Notes: generated from the letters alone by a model not told the origin. 64,000 bases of DNA from Bacteroidales bacterium (GCA_025454795.1 JALONT010000008.1:21423-85422), one strand, 5' to 3'. Positions 21,088-64,000 are shown, counted from the first letter of the stretch. Translations and numbers: made by a program.

Positions 21088-21100
21088 CTTACCCCTACCC

Positions 21101-21123
21101 TTCCCGCAAACGCGGGACAGGCT
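21101..21123. repeat. GC-rich hairpin module TTCCCGC-AAAC-GCGGGACAGGCT (copy 1 of 3 in the window)
   Basis: Lies between the convergent ispF and hutU. Near-identical copies are at 55159-55181 (same orientation) and 60202-60221 (inverted). Confidence 0.7.
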
Positions 21124-21133
21124 CCGGGATGGG

Positions 21134-52835: not shown

Positions 52836-55085
52836 ATGAAAAAATCTTTGGTAACCATTTTAATTTCAGCTTTATTCCTGGCTTCATCTTCATTTCAGGA
52901 TAGCTTAGGACAAGTAGCACTTCCCCATTATGATGGGATGAATTATGCAGTCGGATCCTCGCTTCAGACTCAAACTGGCTGGACGGCTGTTAATTCAGGA
53001 GATGACATTGTTGTAACTGAAGGAAATCTGAATTTTGTAGGATTAACGAATTCAATTGGTAATAAAATTTTATTTAACGGTTCAGGAATAGATGCATCAA
53101 AGTCAATAACATCCCAAACAGCTGGCACAGTTTATTTATCCTTTATAATGAAGGTGACAAATGTGACTGCTGCAACCGAGGTCGTTGGCGGATATTTTGC
53201 CGGATTCGGACAAAATAGTACAACATTTGGCGCAACTATATGGCTGAAAAAAAATGGAGAGAACTTTAATATTGGGATTAATCCAAGAACCACTACCTCT
53301 ATGACAGGGTTTTCATCCGGGACATACTCAATTAATACAGAAATATTTATTGTTGCCTCATACCAATTCAATGGTTCAACAGGAGATGATGTCGCTAAAA
53401 TCTGGATAAATCCTGCACCTTCAACATTCGGAAGTGTTTCAGAACCTGCAGCTGATATAACAGTCACCAATACAGGTGGAACTGATCTGACAGGTATTTC
53501 AACCATCTTTGTACGCCAGGATAGCGATACGGAAACGCCATTCATTCAGATTGATGAGTTCAGAATCAGTATTAACTGGGCGGATGCAACACCTGCTGAT
53601 GTAACAGCCCCTTCTGCATCTTTCAATCCTCTCAACTCTGCAACTGATGTGGCAATTAACACAACACCCACTATCACTTTCGATGAAGCTGTCGTAAAAG
53701 CCGATGGTTCTGAACTTACAGATGGTGATCTGACAGGACCGACAGGACTTGTAACTCTTAAGAAGACGAATGCCTCAGGTGATGATGTTTCTTTCACCGG
53801 CACAATAGATGCTGCCAAAAAAGTTATTACTATTACTCCTTCGGCCCCACTCGACAATTCACAGTTATATTATCTTGCAATAAGTGCTGTTAAAGATGCC
53901 AGTGGAAATCAGTCAACCGCTTCTGAGATCACATTTACAACCATTGCCGCAGCAGCGCCTACTGTTACACTCACAAATCCTGTCGGTGGAGAAACATTCT
54001 ATGCCACTGATCCTGTAACATTCACCTGGACCTCGGAAAATATTACCAACGTCCTGCTGGAAGTATTTGTTCCGCGCGCAAATGAGTGGCAATCCATGGG
54101 AATCCCAATTCCAGCTGTAGCCGGAAAACTTGACTTCGTAATACCATCTGACGCACCTTATGGTACCGAGTATAAGATCCGTATCTCAGATGCAGGTAAT
54201 TCTGCTGTAAATTCAACCAGCGGAAGCTTTACTGTTATTGCTTTTGCTACCAGCCTGACTGAGCTGAGAGCCAATTGTATTCCAAATGATATTGTTAAGC
54301 TTAGCTCTGAAGCTACCGTCACCTTTTTAAGAACTAACCGCTATCAGAAATATATTCAGGATTCCGGTAAAGGATTGCTGATAGATGATGGCGCACATAT
54401 ACTGACCACAACTTTAGCCCCGGGTGACAACATAACCGGACTTGAAGGGAAGCTAGGATTGTATCACGGATTGCTGCAGCTGGTCCCCACCAAAACAACC
54501 GTAACAATTGCATCCAGCGGTAACATAGTGACTCCAACCCAGATGACCATCGCAGATTATAACACCAATTACCTTAACTATGAATCTATGCTGATCAAGC
54601 TGACAAATGTTACTTTCGCTGCCGGCAACGGAACAGCGACATTTGCTGCTGCAACAAACTATATAATCAATGACGGAGCCAATAGCGTGACTTTCAGAAC
54701 ATTCAATGCCGACGAAACCGACATTGACGGTGAAATTATTCCAAATGCCCCCATAAACATGACCTGTATAGCAGGTTTCTATGATGCGACAATTCAGGTC
54801 TATAGTCGTACAAAATCTGATTTCGAGCTTATTACCGCTATTGAAAGAACCTCAGACTTTAAAGCAGAAATTTACCCTGTTCCTGCAGCTGATATGCTTA
54901 AGGTAAGAAACTTAAAGGATATAAAAGCTTACGAAATACTCGATGCAACCGGCAGGACAATAAGCAAATTAAAAGTTGCCGCCGACAGTGAACTAAACAT
55001 TCCTGTCAGCGAACTGAAGCATGGCATATACTATATCCGGTTCAACACTGCCAGCGGCATAGTGGTCAAAAAATTTGTCAAATAA
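52836..55085 (+). CDS. T9SS-secreted multidomain surface protein (LamG-like + SbsA-type Ig + Ig-like + DUF5689/OB-like module + type A C-terminal sorting domain)
   Basis: A signal peptide is present. The Ig-like segment is DVTAPSASFNPLNSATDVAINTTPTITFDE. The OB-like module is YIQDSGKGLLIDDG...LYHGLLQLVP...MLIKLTNVTF. The C-terminus is EIYPVPAADMLKV...GIYYIRFNTASGIVVKKFVK. Confidence 0.65.
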   Translation: MKKSLVTILISALFLASSSFQDSLGQVALPHYDGMNYAVGSSLQTQTGWTAVNSGDDIVVTEGNLNFVGLTNSIGNKILFNGSGIDASKSITSQTAGTVYLSFIMKVTNVTAATEVVGGYFAGFGQNSTTFGATIWLKKNGENFNIGINPRTTTSMTGFSSGTYSINTEIFIVASYQFNGSTGDDVAKIWINPAPSTFGSVSEPAADITVTNTGGTDLTGISTIFVRQDSDTETPFIQIDEFRISINWADATPADVTAPSASFNPLNSATDVAINTTPTITFDEAVVKADGSELTDGDLTGPTGLVTLKKTNASGDDVSFTGTIDAAKKVITITPSAPLDNSQLYYLAISAVKDASGNQSTASEITFTTIAAAAPTVTLTNPVGGETFYATDPVTFTWTSENITNVLLEVFVPRANEWQSMGIPIPAVAGKLDFVIPSDAPYGTEYKIRISDAGNSAVNSTSGSFTVIAFATSLTELRANCIPNDIVKLSSEATVTFLRTNRYQKYIQDSGKGLLIDDGAHILTTTLAPGDNITGLEGKLGLYHGLLQLVPTKTTVTIASSGNIVTPTQMTIADYNTNYLNYESMLIKLTNVTFAAGNGTATFAAATNYIINDGANSVTFRTFNADETDIDGEIIPNAPINMTCIAGFYDATIQVYSRTKSDFELITAIERTSDFKAEIYPVPAADMLKVRNLKDIKAYEILDATGRTISKLKVAADSELNIPVSELKHGIYYIRFNTASGIVVKKFVK

Positions 55086-55107
55086 ACCTGAGTAAATAAC
55101 CTTATTG

Positions 55108-55305
55108 AGAGGCTGCTTCAAAAGCCCACCACCTCCCCCCCGACAATGTCGGGGGTACTTCCCGCCAAAGCGGGACAGGCTCTCCTCTTAAGAGGAGGAG
55201 AAAGGTAATATATTACATATCAGCACTTTCCCCTCCTTTCGAAGGAGGGGTGTCCCGACAGAAGTGTCGGGACTGGGTGGTTAATAAACTCTTGAGGCAG
55301 CCTCT
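55108..55305. repeat. about 200-bp GC-rich multi-hairpin element closed by a 14-nt inverted repeat
   Basis: The outer arms AGAGGCTGCTTCAA (55108-55121) and TTGAGGCAGCCTCT (55292-55305) pair at 13 of 14 positions. Inside are five hairpins: CCCCCGAC-AAT-GTCGGGGG, CCCGC-CAAA-GCGGG, CTCCTCTT/AAGAGGAG, CCCCTCCTT-TCG-AAGGAGGGG and GTCCCGACA-GAAG-TGTCGGGAC. The element is followed by TTTTATTTAAAAAAAA. Confidence 0.75.
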
Positions 55306-55355
55306 TTTATTTAAAAAAAATCACCAAATTTGCACTTCCCGAAAGGAAACAAAAT

Positions 55356-56261
55356 ATGCGGATATCTCGTATAATAATAATTGTACTGCTCTTATTCTTA
55401 TCTGCAGCATCAGGTTGCCGGAAAGTCCCGGAACCGCCGATCCCTGATAATTCTGATGACTTTAAACCCTGTATTCCCTATCCGGGTACTGAAGAGACAC
55501 TCGATATTGTCACTTTTAATGTTGAGACATTCCCTATTAACGGATATACGTCAGTAGTTACAGTAGCTTCACTACTTAATGCTATCGATGCCGATGTATA
55601 TGCATTGCAGGAAATGGCATCAGAATCAGGTTTTAATCAGCTTGTCGGTCTGATGCCCGGATATGCAGGTCTCTTTTACCTGATCAATAATTCGGACTGG
55701 AACCTGGCCTATATTGTTAAAACCCAGGAAGTGACTGTCGACGGAAGCGCCACAAGACTTCTTTTCACCGATTCACAATACTTTCCCCGGCCACCGTTTG
55801 AGATAAAGATACATCATAAGCCCTCCGGTGCAGATCTTTATTTAATTAACAATCACCTTAAATGCTGTGGTGGTTATGAAAATGAAGCCAGCCGAAGGGC
55901 TGCATCCGGAATGCTGAAGAATTATATAGACACTTCAAGACCTGATGATGCTGTTGTGGTGCTGGGCGACCTGAACGACGAAATAACCGGAACAAGTAGT
56001 AGTGACAATCCCTTTCTGAATTTTATTAATGATCCCGGAAATTACCTGTTTTCCGATATGGCTATTGCTGAAGGAAGCATCCTCTGGTGGTCATATCCCT
56101 CATATCCCAGCCATATAGATCACATCCTTGTGACTAACGAATTGTTTTCATCTATAGATACAACAATGGTGTACAAGGCTGCACCCTGCTATTCAGATTA
56201 TTCCATATATATATCCGATCACCGGCCCGTGGGAATAAGACTATCTCCGGCCGGTCGCTGA
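55356..56261 (+). CDS. endonuclease/exonuclease/phosphatase (EEP) family lipoprotein
   Basis: Lipobox LSAASGC. EEP motifs are IVTFNVE, ALQEM, NNHLK, VLGDLND and a terminal SDHRPV. Confidence 0.75.
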   Translation: MRISRIIIIVLLLFLSAASGCRKVPEPPIPDNSDDFKPCIPYPGTEETLDIVTFNVETFPINGYTSVVTVASLLNAIDADVYALQEMASESGFNQLVGLMPGYAGLFYLINNSDWNLAYIVKTQEVTVDGSATRLLFTDSQYFPRPPFEIKIHHKPSGADLYLINNHLKCCGGYENEASRRAASGMLKNYIDTSRPDDAVVVLGDLNDEITGTSSSDNPFLNFINDPGNYLFSDMAIAEGSILWWSYPSYPSHIDHILVTNELFSSIDTTMVYKAAPCYSDYSIYISDHRPVGIRLSPAGR

Positions 56262-57306
56262 AACTCTTTTTCCCCGGATTTTTTACAATCAGTACATACA
56301 CGGGAAAGTGATCGCTGAAACCTCCCTGGAATACCGTTCCTACATAAGTCCGAAGCGGATAACCCTTATATTGTCCGTCTTTCTGAACAAGGAACTGGTT
56401 GTTGAAAACCTGTGCTTTATAGAATTTATAAGATGAATAATCCTTACCTGTAAGTGAAGGGGTAATTATGATCTGATCGAAAAGATTTGTTCCATCACGG
56501 TAATAGAGAGAGCCTATGCCCTTTTTATATAATGGATACATACAGTTAAAAAATTCTCCCTCTTTAAGTTTTCCGGCATCCGGGGCAGCCATCAGGTGTT
56601 TTCGCAGACTCTCGTTCGACGGATCATCATTAAGATCGCCCATGATGAATATTTTTGCATTTGCATCAGCATTAAGCAGACTGTCAGCAAGGTGGCGCGT
56701 CAGAACAGCTGCAGCGTTTCGCCGGGGACGGGTTGTCATTTCACCACCGCTGCGTGAAGGCCAGTGATTCACAATGAAATGCATTGGTTCACCGTCAAAG
56801 ATCCCGGAGACCACAAGCTGATCGCGTGTGAATATCCGTTCATCCTTTTCATTATAGATCCTGAGCTTATTGCTTGTCGATGCGGTAACTCTGAAAAAAC
56901 GGGTACGGTAAAGAAGAGCAACATCCACACCCCTGAGATCGGGAGAATTATAATGCACGATCTGGTACCCTGATCCTTTCAAAAGAGGATGTGCAATAAT
57001 ATCTTCGAGCACTTCCCTGTTTTCAATTTCTGATACCCCAATGACAGCAGGACCTCCTCTCCATCCGTCATCCTCCCCTATCTTCGAAATTGCAAGAGCC
57101 ATATTATTGATCTTATGCAGGTACTTGTCACCAGTCCACCTGTCAAGACCTTGCGGAGTAAATTCCTCATCAAGAACGCCTTCGGTATCAATTGTATCGA
57201 ACAGGTTTTCGAGATTATAAAATGCAATTAATCCTGCTTTATATGATTGCCCGTAAAGCGTTACCAGACTTAAGAATAACAGTATAAATATTAAAAGTTT
57301 TCTCAT
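56152..57306 (-). CDS. endonuclease/exonuclease/phosphatase (EEP) family protein, secreted
   Basis: Signal peptide plus the EEP motifs IAFYNLENLFD, GVSEIEN, VNHWPSR, IMGDLND and FSDHFPV. A 43-codon tail after the domain runs antisense into the 3' end of the previous gene. Confidence 0.7.
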   Translation of the reverse strand: MRKLLIFILLFLSLVTLYGQSYKAGLIAFYNLENLFDTIDTEGVLDEEFTPQGLDRWTGDKYLHKINNMALAISKIGEDDGWRGGPAVIGVSEIENREVLEDIIAHPLLKGSGYQIVHYNSPDLRGVDVALLYRTRFFRVTASTSNKLRIYNEKDERIFTRDQLVVSGIFDGEPMHFIVNHWPSRSGGEMTTRPRRNAAAVLTRHLADSLLNADANAKIFIMGDLNDDPSNESLRKHLMAAPDAGKLKEGEFFNCMYPLYKKGIGSLYYRDGTNLFDQIIITPSLTGKDYSSYKFYKAQVFNNQFLVQKDGQYKGYPLRTYVGTVFQGGFSDHFPVYVLIVKNPGKKSFSDRPEIVLFPRAGDRIYIWNNLNSRVQPCTPLLYL

Positions 57307-57424
57307 TATCCTGCGGCTGAAATGCCAAAGTTAATATTTAAAGTTACCCTTTCAAATATGATGCCGGTAATAAAATTTTCTTATTAATTATAGTATATTT
57401 ACCCATACACTTTTGCACTTATTT

Positions 57425-60142
57425 ATGAAATACAACAAACTGATTCATTTACTATTAGCCCTTATTTTTAATTCAGCATTACTGGTTGCCCAGCAGGGGA
57501 CTGTTAACGGTACAATAATCAGTTCCGACAGAGGTACCGGATTGCCGGGAGCAGAGGTTACTGATGCTTCAGGAAGGGTGCTCACGGTTACCTTAAATGA
57601 CGGGACTTTTTCAGTAACCCTTTCAGAAGGAAAGCATATCCTTTATATTAACCTTGCGGATTTTGACCAGGCAGTAATTGAAGCAGATGTAATACCTGAT
57701 GCTGAAACTGATGCCGGCATTGTTAAACTCAATGCCTCAGCCGGATCAATGCAGGACCTTTTTACGATCAATATCAATGAAGGAGTGGAGGAAGATGGTT
57801 TTGAAACCCAGTCGGTCCAGGGGGTACTAAGCTCAACTGCAGACGTTTTTCTGAGCAATGCCGCATATACATTCGGCCCGGTAATGTTCCGCGTCAGAGG
57901 TTATGATGCCAACTATACCAACGTCAGCCTTAACGGATTCGTGATGAACGACATAGAGTCGGGATCGCCATACTGGTCAAACTGGGGAGGCCTCAATGAT
58001 GTGATGCGCAGCGCAATGGTATCCTCAGGTCCCGAACCCATTGGTTTCCTCTTTGAGCCGGTCGGCGGAGCAACCCGCATAAACACAAAAGCTTCCGAAT
58101 ACAGATCCGGGATAAAAGCAGTTTACTCTCTTTCAAACCGCACATATGGCAACCGGCTGATGGTAACCTATTCGACCGGACTGATGGAGAATAACTGGGC
58201 AATCACCGGCAGCTATTCGAAGAGATGGAGTGAGCGTGGTTACGAAGAGGGTACTTTCTATGATGCAAACTCATTTTTCCTCTCAGTCGAGAAAAAGTTC
58301 AACAGCCGACACAGCCTTAACCTAACTGCTCTCGATGCTATCTATCAACGAGGCGTGGCAGGAGGAACAACACAGGAGGTTTATGACCTGATGGACGACA
58401 ATTATTATAATCCCTACTGGGGTTATCAGAATGGCGAAGTGCGGAATTCAAGGGTGCGAAGCAACAATAAACCGCTCTTTACCCTTGCACATTTCTGGAA
58501 ACCGGCAGGCAAGCTTGATGTTCAGACAACTGTCGGGTACTGGTTTGGCAAGAGCGGTTATACAGCATTGAACTGGTATGACGTTTTTGATCCAAGACCC
58601 GACTATTACAGGAAGCTTCCTTCATATTATACCGACTCTACAGATATGGCACAGCTCACAGAGGCGTGGCAGACAGATCCGGAGGTAAGCCATGTTAACT
58701 GGAACAGCTTCTATTATGCCAACCGGAAGAATATACATACAGTCACAGATGAAAGCGGTATTGCCGGTAATGATGTATCAGGGAACCGGTCAAAATATAT
58801 TGTTGAAGACCGACGGAATGACCTTTCACAGTTCCAGTTCAATACCAGGGCTTCATGGGACCTGAGCGAAAGGATCAATATTACAGGAGGTATGCTTTTA
58901 GATATATTCCGTGGTCATAATTTTAACGTAATCAGGGACCTGCTTGGAGGAGATTACTGGCTTGACGTTGATCAGTTTGCCGAACGGGATTTCCCGGATG
59001 ATCCCGATGCATTACAGAGCGACCTTGAAAATCCAAACAGGACTGTCGTTGAAGGCGATATTTTCGGGAACAATTATTATGCTTTCCAGCGTGGTGCAAC
59101 TCTCTGGGGAACAGGAAGGTACAGCCATAAGCGCTACTTCGTATATGTAAGCGCCGATGCCCGTTATACCTCCATGTGGAGAGAAGGGCTCATGAGAAAA
59201 GGTCTGTTCCCTGATATATCGCTGGGTGAATCCGAAAAACTGAATTACCTGACCTGGGGTGTTAAGGCAGGAGGAGACTACCGTTTAACAGGAAGACATC
59301 TTATAACAATCAATACTCTGGTGGCAACAAACCCGCCCCTGTTTCGTAATTCCTACCTCTCGCCCAGAACACGCAACACTACTACTCCGGGGTTGCAGGA
59401 AGAGACAATATTTTCCGGCGATATAAGCTACGTTCTCAGGTCCCCGGTTGTAAAAGCAAGAATAACAGGGTATTACACTAGGTTCATGAATCAGACCGAA
59501 GTTACAAGCTTCTATCATGATGACTGGAGGACGCTGGTAAATTATGCTATAACAAACATCGATAAGGAGAATTATGGCCTTGAGATCGGAACAGAAGTTA
59601 CAATAACGACGGGGCTTAATATAAATGCAGCTGCCTCACTGGGACAATACCTCTGGGTAAATAATCCGGATATTACCATAACCAAGGATAATAACAGCGA
59701 GGTCCTGAGTACCGAGGAGATGTGGATTAAATACTTCAGGCAGAGCGGAACGCCTCAGACAGCCGTTTCACTGGGCATCGAATATAATTCTTCAAGATTC
59801 TGGTGGGCTGGAATAACGGGAAGCTGGTACGATAATATTTATCTGGACTTTAATCCTGTAACACGTACAAAAGATGAAGCCGGATACTATCCTTACTGGG
59901 ATCTCCAGATCAAGGAATCACCAGGGTACCTGCTTGACATTTTTGTCGGAAAGTCATGGAAGATCAACAATATATACCTTAACCTGAGTGCAAACCTTAG
60001 CAATATACTCAATAATAAAAGCCTGATAACAGGAGGGTTTGAACAGTATCGTTTTGATTCCGGCAATCCCGACCTGTTCGATCCGAAACTATACTATTAT
60101 AATGGGTTCAACTACTTTATTAATTTCAGCATAAGGATGTAA
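57425..60142 (+). CDS. TonB-dependent-receptor-like outer-membrane beta-barrel with N-terminal CarboxypepD_reg-like domain
   Basis: Signal peptide, then GTVNGTIISSDRGTGLPGAEV (carboxypeptidase-regulatory-like), a plug-like FRVRGYDANYTNVSLNGFVMND segment, and about 650 aa with a beta-strand pattern. No SusD-like gene follows. Confidence 0.65.
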   Translation: MKYNKLIHLLLALIFNSALLVAQQGTVNGTIISSDRGTGLPGAEVTDASGRVLTVTLNDGTFSVTLSEGKHILYINLADFDQAVIEADVIPDAETDAGIVKLNASAGSMQDLFTININEGVEEDGFETQSVQGVLSSTADVFLSNAAYTFGPVMFRVRGYDANYTNVSLNGFVMNDIESGSPYWSNWGGLNDVMRSAMVSSGPEPIGFLFEPVGGATRINTKASEYRSGIKAVYSLSNRTYGNRLMVTYSTGLMENNWAITGSYSKRWSERGYEEGTFYDANSFFLSVEKKFNSRHSLNLTALDAIYQRGVAGGTTQEVYDLMDDNYYNPYWGYQNGEVRNSRVRSNNKPLFTLAHFWKPAGKLDVQTTVGYWFGKSGYTALNWYDVFDPRPDYYRKLPSYYTDSTDMAQLTEAWQTDPEVSHVNWNSFYYANRKNIHTVTDESGIAGNDVSGNRSKYIVEDRRNDLSQFQFNTRASWDLSERINITGGMLLDIFRGHNFNVIRDLLGGDYWLDVDQFAERDFPDDPDALQSDLENPNRTVVEGDIFGNNYYAFQRGATLWGTGRYSHKRYFVYVSADARYTSMWREGLMRKGLFPDISLGESEKLNYLTWGVKAGGDYRLTGRHLITINTLVATNPPLFRNSYLSPRTRNTTTPGLQEETIFSGDISYVLRSPVVKARITGYYTRFMNQTEVTSFYHDDWRTLVNYAITNIDKENYGLEIGTEVTITTGLNINAAASLGQYLWVNNPDITITKDNNSEVLSTEEMWIKYFRQSGTPQTAVSLGIEYNSSRFWWAGITGSWYDNIYLDFNPVTRTKDEAGYYPYWDLQIKESPGYLLDIFVGKSWKINNIYLNLSANLSNILNNKSLITGGFEQYRFDSGNPDLFDPKLYYYNGFNYFINFSIRM

Positions 60143-60201
60143 AACCGGCGACCGGCAACGGGCTTGCGGTAACCGGCGAAATAAATCCCCTCCCTGGAGA
60201 C

Positions 60202-60221
60202 CCTGTCCCGCGTCAGCGGGA
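60202..60221. repeat. inverted copy of the TCCCGC-N4-GCGGGACAGG hairpin module
   Basis: CCTGTCCCGC-GTCA-GCGGGA is nested between CCCCTCCC and GGGGTGGG and followed by TTTTTA, just after the receptor gene stop. Confidence 0.6.
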
Positions 60222-60243
60222 GGCTTGGGGTGGGTTTTTACAA

Positions 60244-60299
60244 GATAAAAGATAAAAGATAAAAGATAAAAGATAAAAGATAAAAGACAAAAGACAAAA
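60244..60299. repeat. 8-unit heptanucleotide tandem repeat (GATAAAA x6, GACAAAA x2)
   Basis: Read directly from the sequence. The array ends 8 nt upstream of the ATG at 60308. Confidence 0.95.
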
Positions 60300-60307
60300 T
60301 AATCTTA

Positions 60308-61666
60308 ATGAAGAGTAAAAGATATATTCCCGGACTGTTATTGTTAATTAGCATTTTTGCAGTTTCCTGTGTTGACAATAACGAAAATGATCCCCCTGTA
60401 AGGAAGTTTGTTACAGATACTATTGTTACAGTGCAGCAGGTAAAGGCACTGTACAAGGACCAGCTTGCACTTAATTACAAGTTACGCATCCCGGTTGAAA
60501 TAGTTCATGGCTGGGCATTGAGCGGGATTATAACTGCCAGCGATAAAAAAGACGGTAATCTTTACAAGGAAGCTTTCATTCAGGATGCAACCGGCGGTTT
60601 AAGGTTACTGTTTGAGTCGACAAGCGGCCTGTATATCGGCGACTCGGTTATTGTAAACCTTAAAGGTCTTTACATCGGCGATTATGGCGACTTCTGGCAG
60701 GTTGGAGGAGAACCTTATGTCGATGACAGCGGAAGCATAAGGGTGTCAGGCATGAACATGGACAAGCAGGTACTGAAGCTTTCAATTAATAATCCCACTT
60801 ATCCCGATACTATTACTGTTGCACAGGCAAAGAGTTCAGCTTACCTGGGAAAACTGGTTGCTTTAAAAGGTGTTCAGTTCACAGATGATGCAGTCAACCA
60901 GACTTATGGCGATCTCTCGGGAGAGGCTCCTGCCTCTGCCAACAGGGATCTGATGGATTGTGATAAGAAGAAAATCATCGTTCGTACCTCCGGCTATGCC
61001 TCATTCGCTGATGATACAATTTCCGACATGAATGGAACCATTACCGGTATTGTTACGATTTTTAGTTCTGACTATCAGCTAATTATAAGGGATTTCAAAG
61101 AAGTAAAGCTCACAAATGATAGGTGCTGGCCTGGAATACCAGACCTCGGTACGCCAGTAGAAACAATTTACCTGAATTTTGAAGGATTCCCCAATAATAC
61201 TGATCTAAAGATAACTGGCTGGCAGAATATTGCTCAATATGGCGATCGGGTTTGGAGAAGCATGTACAAAAATGGATTAAACTACTCCCAAGCAACAGGT
61301 TATAATTCAAGCCTTGGTTCCATGGTAGCCTGGCTCATAACAAGGCCTGTTTCGATTTCGACACAGAAAGTACTCTCTTTTCAAACAGCCAAAGAATACT
61401 GGGCGCATAAGGGAAATAATATTCCTTTTCAGGTATTTTATTCAACAGACTATACAGGGAAAAATCTTTTTACGGCGACTTGGATTCCGATTAATGCAAC
61501 AATTGCCGGTTATAATGATGCTGATAATACATTTATAAGTTCAGGAAACATCAATCTCCCGATCCAGAATGGCAAATCGTGTGTAATTGCTTTTAAATAC
61601 ACGGGCAGCGAAACGGAAAGCACCTCCTTCCGCATTGACAATATATCTGTTACAACAGTCAGGTAA
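60308..61666 (+). CDS. DUF5689-type (OB-fold-like) lipoprotein with C-terminal choice-of-anchor-J-like domain
   Basis: Lipobox IFAVSC, then FIQDATGGLRLLF...GDFWQVGG...LVALKGVQFTDD...YQLIIRD, then a C-terminal TGWQNIAQYGDRVWRS...FRIDNISV. Confidence 0.6.
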   Translation: MKSKRYIPGLLLLISIFAVSCVDNNENDPPVRKFVTDTIVTVQQVKALYKDQLALNYKLRIPVEIVHGWALSGIITASDKKDGNLYKEAFIQDATGGLRLLFESTSGLYIGDSVIVNLKGLYIGDYGDFWQVGGEPYVDDSGSIRVSGMNMDKQVLKLSINNPTYPDTITVAQAKSSAYLGKLVALKGVQFTDDAVNQTYGDLSGEAPASANRDLMDCDKKKIIVRTSGYASFADDTISDMNGTITGIVTIFSSDYQLIIRDFKEVKLTNDRCWPGIPDLGTPVETIYLNFEGFPNNTDLKITGWQNIAQYGDRVWRSMYKNGLNYSQATGYNSSLGSMVAWLITRPVSISTQKVLSFQTAKEYWAHKGNNIPFQVFYSTDYTGKNLFTATWIPINATIAGYNDADNTFISSGNINLPIQNGKSCVIAFKYTGSETESTSFRIDNISVTTVR

Positions 61667-61681
61667 TTAGAGATTACAGTT

Positions 61682-62941
61682 ATGAAGATAAAGAATTATA
61701 TAAGCGGATTAGCTCTCTTTACGGCTATGGTTATGGTTTCCTGCGACAGGGAGCCAATGTTTCCGCCTGATCCGGTAGTTGATTATGTTACTATTGCCCA
61801 GCTCAGGAATATGTACAACGACGGAATTGTGACAATTGATACAAACATTTACATCCAGGGTATTATAACGCTGACTCCCGAATTCGGGAATATTCCTGAT
61901 TTTGTCGCATATATCCAGGACACGACCGCAGGAATATGCCTGACAATAACCGGTACAAACGCCCTGACAATGAACTCTGAAGTGAAGATACTCTGCCGGG
62001 GGATATCCTTCACCCTGTACAATGGCTTACTGCAATTCGGCGATATTGACCTTACAGCTAAACAGGTTGAACTTATAAAACTGACAGCTGAGGTACCTGA
62101 ACCTGTAAGTGTAACAATAGACGAGCTTCTGAATGGCGAGCACCAGGCTGAATATGTGTCAGTTACGGGTGTTCAGTTTGATGATCCCGGTACATTCTCT
62201 GGCGGTAAAGACCTTACAGACTGCAATTCAGTTGTTGAAGTTTATACAAGATCAGTTGCAACATTTTCCGGAACAGCTCTTCCTACAGGAAACGGAACTT
62301 TTAAAGGAATAGCTTCTGTTTTCTTTACAACACAACTTTTACTACGCGATCCTTCTGAACTGGATATGACAGGAGATATTTGCGGTGTACCATCGGTAAC
62401 CTACCTCTCACAGGATTTTAACACACTTTCGACAAATAACACAAATGTTACCTCTCTGACTGGATGGAAAACCTATTCTGAGGCAGGAACAAAAACATGG
62501 TTTAGCTACAAGACTAGTACCCTTGGACCATTTATTGAGACCACCGCCTATGGATCAGGTCAGCCATCTGTAATAACCTGGATGATTGCTCCCCAGATAG
62601 ATTTATCACCTGCAACCAACCCTTATATCAGTTTTGAGAGCGCTGACGGATACGATAACGGGGCAACTCTGGAGTTATTTGTTTCCACAGACTATAATGG
62701 TTCAGCTACGCCATGGACCAGCACATGGACAAAACTTAATTTTACATTACCTCCAAGTATTCCCCGAGGCACTTATCCAGCATTCAGTGCTTTTGTCTCA
62801 TCTGGGAAAATTGAATTGTCGGCTTATATTGGAAGTACTTTGTACATTGCATGGGTTTATAAGGGAGCTGATGTAACTCCCGATACAAATGATAAGACAA
62901 CTACCTGGGAAGTTGATAATGTTTTAATAGCAGAAGAATAA
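61682..62941 (+). CDS. DUF5689-type (OB-fold-like) lipoprotein, paralog of the preceding gene
   Basis: Lipobox MVMVSC. Motifs are collinear with the previous protein (YIQDTTAGICLTI, YNGLLQFGD, YVSVTGVQFDD, TQLLLRD, TGWKTYSEAGTKTWFS, WEVDNVLI). Confidence 0.6.
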   Translation: MKIKNYISGLALFTAMVMVSCDREPMFPPDPVVDYVTIAQLRNMYNDGIVTIDTNIYIQGIITLTPEFGNIPDFVAYIQDTTAGICLTITGTNALTMNSEVKILCRGISFTLYNGLLQFGDIDLTAKQVELIKLTAEVPEPVSVTIDELLNGEHQAEYVSVTGVQFDDPGTFSGGKDLTDCNSVVEVYTRSVATFSGTALPTGNGTFKGIASVFFTTQLLLRDPSELDMTGDICGVPSVTYLSQDFNTLSTNNTNVTSLTGWKTYSEAGTKTWFSYKTSTLGPFIETTAYGSGQPSVITWMIAPQIDLSPATNPYISFESADGYDNGATLELFVSTDYNGSATPWTSTWTKLNFTLPPSIPRGTYPAFSAFVSSGKIELSAYIGSTLYIAWVYKGADVTPDTNDKTTTWEVDNVLIAEE

Positions 62942-62944
62942 AGT

Positions 62945-64000
62945 ATGAACAGCAGAAAGACAAAATTTTCAATTCTGCTTTTACTCTCACTGTTCGGATC
63001 AATCATTCTTACAGCTCAACCGGCCGGTTATTATGATTCAGCATCCGGACTTACAGGCACAGCCCTGCAGCAGGCTATTCATGATATTATTAAAAATCAT
63101 ACCTCCAGAACCTATGATAATCTCTGGACCGATTTCCAGGTAACCGACAGGAAAGCCAATGGCAAGGTGTGGGATATGTACTCGGATTTACCATCAGGAA
63201 CTCCGGTGTACGAATTTATATTCATCACTAATCAATGTGGCAACTATGCAAAAGAAGGAGACTGTTACAACAGGGAGCATTCCTTCCCGAAGAGTTGGTT
63301 CGGAGGAGAGAAATATCCCATGTATTCAGATCTTTTTCATCTTTATCCTACTGACGGCTGGGTAAATAATAAGAGAGGAAATTCCCCTTTCGGGATAACT
63401 TCAAGTCCGACATGGACTTCAACCAATGGAAGTAAGGTGGGACCAAGCTCCTATACAGGCTACTCAGAAGATATATTTGAACCGATAAATGAATATAAAG
63501 GTGATTTTGCCAGGTCATATTTTTATATGGCTGTAAGGTATTACGGAGAAGATTCTTCATGGACCGGAAGCGATATGGTCGACGGGTCACAGCTAAAACC
63601 ATGGGCACTTAAAATGCTTATGGAATGGGACATAGCTGATCCCATAAGTACTAAAGAAACGGACCGTAATAATGCTGTTTATTCAATACAGGGTAACAGG
63701 AATCCGTTCATTGATAATCCAGCTTATGCGGCTCTGATCTGGGGAACACAAAGCGGAACGGAGGATGTGGCTAAACTTAAGGAAAGGATCAGGTTGTGGC
63801 CCAATCCGGTAAAAGACCTTGTTAATGTTGAACTGCCTGAAAGATTCCCGGGGCAATACAAGGTTAGTATAGCAGATGCAACCGGCCGGATAATTTATGA
63901 AAAATCAGTTTCTGGAAAACCGGTTACTCTTGATCTCTCAAATATGAGGGATGGTTTATATATAATGATAATCACAGATGACACTGATGTTATTACAACA
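62945..64000 (+). CDS. endonuclease I family extracellular nuclease with T9SS C-terminal sorting domain (3' end outside the window)
   Basis: This ORF is not in the track because it has no stop within the window. My translation from the ATG at 62945 is open for 352 codons. It contains NREHSFPKSWFGG, PMYSDLFHLYPTDGWVNNKRGN, and NRNPFIDNP, followed by LWPNPVKDLVNVEL...DGLYIMIITD (type A CTD). Confidence 0.8.
   Translation, partial: MNSRKTKFSILLLLSLFGSIILTAQPAGYYDSASGLTGTALQQAIHDIIKNHTSRTYDNLWTDFQVTDRKANGKVWDMYSDLPSGTPVYEFIFITNQCGNYAKEGDCYNREHSFPKSWFGGEKYPMYSDLFHLYPTDGWVNNKRGNSPFGITSSPTWTSTNGSKVGPSSYTGYSEDIFEPINEYKGDFARSYFYMAVRYYGEDSSWTGSDMVDGSQLKPWALKMLMEWDIADPISTKETDRNNAVYSIQGNRNPFIDNPAYAALIWGTQSGTEDVAKLKERIRLWPNPVKDLVNVELPERFPGQYKVSIADATGRIIYEKSVSGKPVTLDLSNMRDGLYIMIITDDTDVITT

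Follow-up and report, generated by a model that had tools for sequence, protein, structure and literature searches.

A nuclease-rich locus in a wetland Bacteroidales bacterium is probably a Ddb-type system for nucleic-acid capture and uptake

Results

A locus of seven genes with a predicted outer-membrane transporter

We analyzed a stretch of 64,000 nucleotides from a Bacteroidales bacterium (GCA_025454795.1 JALONT010000008.1:21423-85422; hereafter the window), which is part of a 94-kb contig of a Joint Genome Institute (JGI) metagenome. The region studied, positions 52836–64000 of the window, holds a locus of seven long open reading frames (ORFs), here called A to G, which extends to 64021 and which is probably a nucleic-acid capture and uptake system of the Ddb type. 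A first-pass annotation, made from the sequence alone, had described seven neighboring genes with named domains, and all seven ORFs are present at those coordinates, with corrections to D and G given below; Pfam and NCBIfam profile searches confirmed the named domains. Folds were assigned by searching AlphaFold2 models against the PDB with Foldseek. The source organism is an uncultured wetland Bacteroidales bacterium known from metagenomes only; it is close to Prolixibacteraceae and bears a type IX secretion system (T9SS), and near-identical sequence is present in wetland metagenomes.

Gene D (57425..60142, plus strand) encodes a DdbC-like outer-membrane transporter of 905 amino acids, as judged from its fold and from the annotation of its homologues, which NCBI names TonB-dependent receptors. 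We placed its start at the ATG at 57425 instead of the TTG at 57413 given in the first-pass annotation, since this agrees with the database copy and with more than 100 of the closest homologues (903–907 amino acids). The protein consists, in order, of a signal peptide, a CarboxypepD_reg-like N-extension, a β-strand followed by an acidic linker, a plug-like domain, and a large β-barrel. In Pfam, CarboxypepD_reg matched below threshold only and TonB_dep_Rec did not match; no NCBIfam model matched either, those of SusC/RagA included, and a sequence-profile search of the PDB returned carboxypeptidase-D N-domains only. The AlphaFold2 model was of moderate confidence (predicted local distance difference test score, pLDDT, 67; predicted template modeling score, pTM, 0.66), and its top Foldseek matches in the PDB were all TonB-dependent transporters, namely PqqU (E-value 1e-22), Fiu, YncD, FecA, OprC, and BtuB, with alignments of 730–860 columns and template modeling (TM) scores of 0.65–0.68 when normalized to the target. 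Moreover, homologues from Chryseobacterium (locus L016, 36.2 bits) and Rikenellaceae (L021, 26.9 bits) exceed the Pfam cut-off for Plug. Sequence profiles alone are insufficient to place D, and we therefore call it TonB-dependent-receptor-like on account of its fold and of the homologues that pass the Plug cut-off. The barrel class proposed at first pass is supported by the fold and by the plug of the homologues, not by a TonB_dep_Rec or an above-threshold Plug match in D itself; the fold also sets D apart from an unrelated porin.

A short strand of alternating hydrophobic residues, running into the acidic linker, is common to 28 diverse homologues and lies between the N-extension and the plug. 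In D this motif of strand and linker is found at about residues 112–125 and reads LFTININEGVEEDGFE; its position is the one expected for a TonB box, for which we consider it a candidate. The D family is distinct and moderately large, with 2169 members at an E-value of at most 1e-3 and 772 at an E-value of at most 1e-30 among representatives of clusters at 50% identity. The nearest homologues, at 72–73% identity, come from metagenome-assembled genomes (MAGs) of uncultured Bacteroidales and Prolixibacteraceae. We also noted that the C-terminus of D (60128–60142) reads ...SIRM, as in close relatives, whereas the wider family ends in an aromatic residue (...RF), as is usual in outer-membrane barrels.

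Two paralogous lipoproteins downstream of the transporter

Gene E (60308..61666, plus strand) encodes a DdbD-like surface lipoprotein of 452 amino acids with a lipobox cysteine at residue 21. It is composed of a DUF5689 tandem module (7e-50) that is like an oligonucleotide/oligosaccharide-binding (OB) fold, followed by a jelly-roll domain of the choice-of-anchor J/DUF5017 type (choice_anchor_J, 4e-16). In an alignment of 30 homologues, Cys21, N24, and N25 were invariant and D23 and E26 nearly so; by comparison with published lipoprotein export signals, the resulting D-N-N-E motif after Cys21 would fit a surface-export signal of the Bacteroidota type. The AlphaFold2 model of E reached a pLDDT of 74.5. 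When searched with Foldseek, its N-terminal DUF5689 part matched the AB tandem OB domains of Tetrahymena Teb1 (1.3e-4) and the HIN domain of IFI16 (1.4e-3), and its C-terminal domain matched the jelly-rolls of ephrin-receptor ligand-binding domains, gingipain K1/K3 adhesin domains, and reelin repeats. The OB assignment of E comes from the fold; weak matches to the tRNA_anti-codon OB family were seen in homologues from Rikenellaceae. We propose that E acts as a DNA-binding lid of D.

Gene F (61682..62941, plus strand) encodes a second lipoprotein of the same composition (419 amino acids; DUF5689, 6e-29; choice_anchor_J, 3e-12), whose lipobox reads ...VMVSC and is followed by DRE. E and F are 29% identical from end to end (E-value 2e-39), in agreement with the two paralogous lipoproteins described at first pass. 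Their Pfam and NCBIfam matches are to DUF5689 and choice-of-anchor J, and none is to a SusD family.

Three nuclease-type gene products and a T9SS cargo protein

Gene C (56152..57306, minus strand), which is transcribed divergently from D, encodes a candidate periplasmic nuclease of the EEP family. Its product (384 amino acids) carries a signal peptide for signal peptidase I (SPI) and matches Exo_endo_phos_3 (PF19580) over its full length (2e-125). Gene B (55356..56261, plus strand) encodes a candidate EEP-family lipoprotein nuclease of 301 amino acids with the lipobox ...SAASGC, which matches Exo_endo_phos (PF03372, 8e-10) and, weakly, the catalytic part of ExeM/NucH (1.5e-5) and exonuclease III (xth, 6e-5). 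The ExeM/NucH alignment pairs residues 73–208 of B with model positions 281–446 and scores 24 bits, against a family cut-off of 300. The motifs N-x-E (as TFNVET), GDLND, and SDHRPV are readable in B, and N-x-E, GDLND, and SDH(R/F)PV are readable across B and C. We take these to be catalytic motifs. Neither B nor C had a sequence relative in the PDB. Their nearest families are those of nucleases (PF19580, and weakly ExeM/NucH and xth) and not sphingomyelinases or inositol phosphatases, two assignments that would have spoken against the first-pass proposal.

B and C are convergent and overlap by 110 bp at their 3' ends (56152–56261), owing to a C-terminal extension of about 40 residues in C. Most homologues of C are without this tail (those of loci L004, L007, L008, L016, and L021 end 1–4 residues past the conserved domain), so the extension looks like a recent shift of the stop codon and not like a functional part.

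Gene G (62945..64000, plus strand) continues for 21 nucleotides past the end of the window, where the first-pass annotation had placed the end of the locus. It encodes a protein of 358 amino acids with an endonuclease I domain (Endonuclease_1, 1.5e-78) and a type A T9SS sorting domain that scores above the cut-offs of both Por_Secre_tail (PF18962, 5e-11) and TIGR04183 (7e-8), the mark of a T9SS cargo. Its sequence relatives in the PDB are the Vvn/EndA endonucleases I (1.6e-5), and the E-H and N...R-G-N motifs of endonuclease I, presumably part of the active site, can be read in it. By its domains, G is a predicted secreted or surface-attached non-specific nuclease, in the role of the extracellular DdbF. 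The locus as a whole therefore encodes three nuclease-type products with predicted activity: an SPI-type EEP protein (C), an EEP lipoprotein (B), and a T9SS-type endonuclease I (G).

Gene A (52836..55085, plus strand) encodes a surface protein of 749 amino acids, assigned by Pfam and NCBIfam, which is likewise a T9SS cargo by its N-terminal SPI signal peptide and its type A sorting domain (PF18962, 2e-10; TIGR04183, 4e-10; both above the cut-offs). Between these lie an N-domain of about 230 residues (26–255) for which no family was found in Pfam, Ig domains of the Big_5 (3e-13) and Kre9-like kinds, and, at residues 506–662, a DUF5689 match (2e-10) that covers the C-terminal two thirds of the OB-like module. 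Residues 505–591 also align to positions 28–110 of the ExeM/NucH model (NF033681), at an E-value of 0.003 and 16 bits against the cut-off of 300. The first-pass annotation had likened the OB-like module of the lipoproteins to that of ExeM/NucH-type nucleases; in sequence this likeness is weak and seen in A only, and for lipoprotein E the OB relation comes from the fold. Compared with ExeM/NucH, the OB-like N-module (A) and the EEP catalytic domain (B) lie here on separate proteins; no single protein has the whole architecture, and the matches fall far below the family cut-off. We propose, by analogy with SusE/F, that A may be a surface-anchored or released DNA binder.

An analogue of A was noted in a distant family. 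In a Chryseobacterium gleum MAG (L016, 13808–15148), a gene for a T9SS cargo protein lies downstream of the DUF5689 lipoprotein gene; its product has a CBM_4_9-like N-domain and the N-terminal OB-like module of ExeM/NucH (4e-10), without the catalytic domain.

The transporter, lipoprotein, and PF19580 genes form a conserved core

When one genome for each GTDB species was searched, homologues of D proved to be encoded in at least 599 stretches. We counted synteny in the best 80 of these loci by tblastn with eight proteins (A to G and the NupC protein encoded downstream of G), and the denominators 69, 73, and 43 below are the loci with enough flanking sequence. An E/F-like lipoprotein gene lies within 1 kb downstream of the barrel gene and on the same strand in 69/69 loci; in the window, E starts 165 nucleotides after D, so that a DUF5689 gene stands directly 3' of the transporter gene, as in Ddb loci. 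On the upstream side, a C-like PF19580 gene of opposite strand starts or ends no more than 1 kb from the barrel gene in 58 of 73 loci; in four more such a gene is found elsewhere in the flank. The association of lipoprotein, barrel, and PF19580 genes is far above chance.

All of the best 80 loci are labeled Bacteroidota except for one contig of a MAG labeled Competibacteraceae, and they span Bacteroidales, Flavobacteriales, Chitinophagales, and Saprospiraceae. Draconibacterium orientale (L066) and Saccharicrinis sp. (L058), which are cultured relatives, carry the locus. The full layout from A to G is confined to the closest relatives (L003–L007 and L010). B-like genes and A-like genes were each found by tblastn in 3/43 loci, those of A in the closest relatives only. 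In nine of 43 loci, a gene for endonuclease I is no more than 10 kb away from the barrel gene. One gene accounts for all E/F-like matches in 48 of 60 loci, with a product of either about 420–470 amino acids or a long form of 560–875 amino acids, and two separate DUF5689-type genes do so in nine of the 60; a scan of a single long form (L021, 707 amino acids) showed two DUF5689 modules. Of 94 proteins encoded in the flanks of 43 loci and classified with Pfam, 20 had T9SS sorting domains, 9 were endonuclease I, 5 had PLD-like domains, and 3 had lamin-tail domains.

The locus corresponds in the kinds and order of its genes to experimentally studied systems

The first-pass annotation knew of no description of such a receptor-lipoprotein pair, a statement that is out of date, as experimental work on this kind of system appeared from 2021 to 2025. 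Sharan et al. (PNAS 2025, PMC12478041; also bioRxiv) described ddbABCDEF, a "DNA-utilization locus" of Bacteroides thetaiotaomicron DFI.1.47, with the subtypes Bt1, Bt2, Pv1, and Pv2. DdbA, DdbB, and DdbF degrade DNA in vitro, and deletion of the locus abolishes both DNA depletion and the production of nucleobases from DNA. DdbC is a predicted TonB-dependent transporter. DdbD, a DUF5689 protein that resembles the p202 HIN/OB DNA-binding domain, was placed on DdbC as a lid-like partner by AlphaFold3, and DdbE is a further lipoprotein. The authors call the locus similar to a polysaccharide utilization locus (PUL) and related to the Riemerella system (PMC12478041). The operon BT3560-3563 of strain VPI-5482, which encodes a TonB-dependent receptor and nucleases, is homologous to ddb; it emerged from a screen for bile-dependent biofilm, in which the BT3563 DNase degrades extracellular DNA (eDNA) of the matrix and is needed for such biofilm, and the DNase alone complements (Béchon et al., PNAS 2022, PMC8851478). 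In Riemerella anatipestifer, transposon insertions in RA0C_RS04915, which encodes a CarboxypepD_reg outer-membrane protein, or in RA0C_RS04920, which encodes a DUF5689 and DUF5017 protein annotated as choice-of-anchor J, abolish natural transformation (Huang et al., 2021, PMC8459023). A companion paper reports that tonBA of R. anatipestifer is needed for transformation, independently of iron.

The likeness to ddb runs through six of the seven genes. B resembles the nuclease DdbA with its signal for signal peptidase II (SPII), C the SPI-type EEP nuclease DdbB, D the CarboxypepD_reg transporter DdbC, E the downstream DUF5689 protein DdbD, F the second SPII protein DdbE, and G the extracellular nuclease DdbF. 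The PUL-like logic without SusC/SusD and the OB/HIN-like fold of the lipoprotein are also shared. Several features differ, however. A and G have T9SS sorting domains here and not lipoprotein signals, whereas the Ddb description has SPI and SPII routes only and does not mention T9SS (PMC12478041); a seventh gene is added, that of the T9SS OB-module protein A; the second lipoprotein, F, is genuinely paralogous to E; and the host is an environmental wetland anaerobe instead of a gut Bacteroides.

With respect to the Riemerella system, D and E have the same domain architectures as its two proteins, and the order of nuclease, barrel, and lipoprotein is the same, a ddbB-like gene being adjacent there. 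E, at a score below the membership cut-off, and its counterpart in the Chryseobacterium locus both match the M949_1556 lipoprotein family, whose M949 prefix we assume to be that of R. anatipestifer. Compared with the minimal Riemerella core, the locus in the window adds three or four accessory genes.

A PUL of the SusC/SusD kind offers a looser parallel, with its surface binders, surface hydrolases, a TonB-dependent barrel with a lipoprotein gene directly downstream, and a periplasmic hydrolase. By contrast, D has no SusC/RagA match, neither E nor F resembles SusD, nucleases take the place of glycoside hydrolases, and there is no linked regulator. Judged by its predicted gene products, the locus is PUL-like in logic only and lacks the SusC/RagA and SusD pair that defines a PUL.

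Intergenic elements and neighboring genes

The spacer between A and B is filled by a cluster of GC-rich hairpins (55108..55305, no strand assigned), read directly from the sequence and bracketed by a long-range inverted repeat. A 25-nucleotide piece of it (55158–55182) is found again at 21100–21124 of the window, which hints at a dispersed element resembling repetitive extragenic palindromes (REP); the cluster may be a terminator or such a REP-like element.

The spacer between D and E (60143..60299, plus strand) begins with GC-rich hairpins that end in GGGUUUUU (60143–60241) and continues as a heptanucleotide array (60242–60299) of the form (GATAAAA)x6 (GACAAAA)x2, with a period of 7 and 8.3 copies, which ends 8 nucleotides before the start codon of E. 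The entire spacer is 165 bp long and lineage-specific, since relatives have 15–90 nucleotides here (about 200 in L006) and none has the array. The hairpins fold no better than shuffled sequence (z-score –1.05). This element could tune or attenuate E and F expression or tune translation, and strand slippage could make it vary; the Logan assemblies break inside the array and so provide no evidence for variation in copy number. The segment 60178–60245, which lies in the GC-rich hairpins, is matched with about 6 mismatches in 68 nucleotides by several unrelated contigs from wetland runs, and this suggests a repeated intergenic element in the source genome or in related ones.

Upstream of C, a -7 box of the Bacteroidota type, TAACTTTG, lies at 57333–57326, about 20 nucleotides before the ATG. 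The 9-mer TTTGCACTT occurs at 55329–55337 and at 57412–57420, that is, 27 nucleotides before the ATG of B and 13 nucleotides before that of D, and it overlaps a Bacteroidota -7-like box (cAnnTTTG). It is weakly unusual, with three occurrences in the window against 0.7 expected and three of 100 shuffles reaching three, and on these weak statistics it may be a shared promoter or operator motif. A scan for sigma-70 promoters returned nothing above chance, and an Rfam search returned tRNAs only.

The genes upstream of A are housekeeping genes unrelated to the locus (Dcp peptidase, EFR1 ferredoxin, and RlmN). Downstream of G, beyond the end of the window at about 64757–66228 in its coordinates, follow a tRNA-Ser(CGA) gene and then a gene for a nucleoside transporter of the NupC/CNT family (Nucleos_tra2_C, 5e-73), on the minus strand, a neighbor that is suggestive for nucleoside salvage.

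Discussion

Genes B-C-D-E-F-G match DdbA to DdbF in kind and order, and C-D-E match the Riemerella core. From this correspondence we conclude that the idea of the first-pass annotation, namely that a PUL-like locus captures, degrades, and takes up extracellular nucleic acid with OB-like lipoproteins standing where SusD would be, was correct and is in essence the published ddbABCDEF model. Its more specific purpose, a source of phosphorus, nitrogen, or nucleotides, is a part of that idea that was not supported. What sets this locus apart is the T9SS route for two components and the duplicated lipoprotein.

We envisage the following course of events. The OB modules of E, F, and A would capture extracellular DNA, and possibly RNA, at the surface. 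Two enzymes would then cleave it while it is still outside: B, the EEP nuclease anchored as a lipoprotein, and G, the endonuclease I delivered by T9SS. The fragments would then cross the outer membrane through the plugged, TonB-energized D, with E, and perhaps F, serving as a SusD-like lid. In the periplasm, C would degrade them further, and enzymes and inner-membrane transporters encoded elsewhere would complete the salvage. For this organism, the analysis itself shows gene content, domain families, signal types, the transporter and OB folds, and the strongly conserved C-D-E core; we infer DNA binding by E, F, and A, the lid, TonB dependence, the size and strandedness of the imported species, and the physiological purpose.

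A number of observations weigh against this interpretation. The Plug match of D stays below threshold (16.3 bits, E-value 0.014, against a cut-off of 23.9 bits), and the plug region of the D model has a pLDDT below 50. E scores 182.6 bits (1e-53) against NF052645, the M949_1556 lipoprotein family, which is below the cut-off of 475 bits. The likeness to the Ddb and RA0C proteins rests on shared Pfam and NCBIfam families and on identical gene order, not on direct alignment. None of the RNA runs searched contains the locus. The adjacent NupC gene was rejected as a part of the locus, given its opposite strand, its place behind tRNA-Ser, and the presence of a NupC-like gene in 0/80 loci. Lastly, DNA is a poor sole source of carbon, nitrogen, or phosphorus for B. 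thetaiotaomicron (PMC12478041), and "nutrient harvesting" is therefore not established even for the type system.

This last point would also suit a different account, in which natural transformation is the main role. D and E (with F) would be the pilus-independent outer-membrane portal of Bacteroidota, through which long DNA is passed on to ComEC and a ComEA-like protein of the periplasm, with the nucleases confined to processing or limiting what comes in. Its mechanism overlaps with the one set out above, and it is the fate of the DNA that differs. The set and order of C-D-E are those of the R. anatipestifer locus, in which the barrel and DUF5689 genes are essential, and a tonBA mutant of that species is transformation-deficient; moreover, the core is spread over Flavobacteriales, Chitinophagales, Saprospiraceae, and Bacteroidales, which points to a function that is general and old. 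On the other hand, the number of nucleases at the locus is unusually high (B, C, and G), one of them being a non-specific endonuclease I that would destroy transforming DNA, and the expanded layout matches the catabolic ddbABCDEF and not the minimal form. It is this nuclease-rich layout that favors the catabolic form over transformation, and tests of gut Bacteroidales with ddb loci gave inconsistent results for DNA uptake (Sharan et al., PNAS 2025). We regard transformation as an unlikely main role.

A third possibility places the main role outside the cell, in the remodeling of eDNA in biofilms or on particles, as for the BT3563 DNase, with uptake through D being secondary. The biofilm screen that yielded BT3560-3563 and the degradation of matrix eDNA by its DNase point in this direction, as does the export of A and G by T9SS to the surface or the medium. 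Yet it was the DNase alone that complemented, so the near-universal linkage of transporter, OB lipoprotein, and periplasmic nuclease would be left unexplained, and later work found the locus to be needed for DNA depletion and nucleobase production; we hold this account to be quite improbable. It is less probable still, to the point of being hardly tenable, that the locus does not handle nucleic acids at all, the EEP proteins being phosphatases or lipid phosphodiesterases and the barrel importing another phosphorylated compound. The EEP superfamily is indeed broad, the match of B is to the generic PF03372 (8e-10) and comes without a solved relative, and D has no characterized ligand. Against this stand G, a clear endonuclease I of the Vvn/EndA kind, and C, which shares family and gene position with DdbB, a protein that degrades DNA in vitro. 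The secondary matches of B to ExeM/NucH and exonuclease III, weak as they are, the OB/HIN-like folds of the lipoproteins, and the recurrence of PLD-like and lamin-tail-domain proteins in related loci point the same way.

Nucleic-acid capture and uptake of the Ddb type thus remains the reading that we prefer. Much more tentatively, and with the odds against it, T9SS-bearing environmental Bacteroidota may have reorganized the Ddb core around type IX secretion, such that a T9SS-anchored OB-fold "DNA catcher" (A) and a T9SS nuclease (G) feed a barrel with two distinct DUF5689 lids, and the result would be a general pilus-independent DNA portal for both nutrition and transformation in anoxic sediments. 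In the ddb papers reached by our literature search, neither recurrent T9SS cargo beside the core nor the recurrence of two DUF5689-type genes, or of one long gene (560–875 amino acids), is described.

For the window taken by itself, the value of these results lies in a correct annotation, as the concept has already been published. Beyond the window, the barrel homologues in at least 599 stretches indicate that the Ddb/Riemerella DNA system is not confined to gut Bacteroides or to a bird pathogen. Where a lineage bears T9SS, nucleases and binders exported by this route often accompany the core. Such loci may be relevant to how extracellular DNA is turned over in wetlands and sediments, and to gene transfer in a phylum without the classical pilus route.

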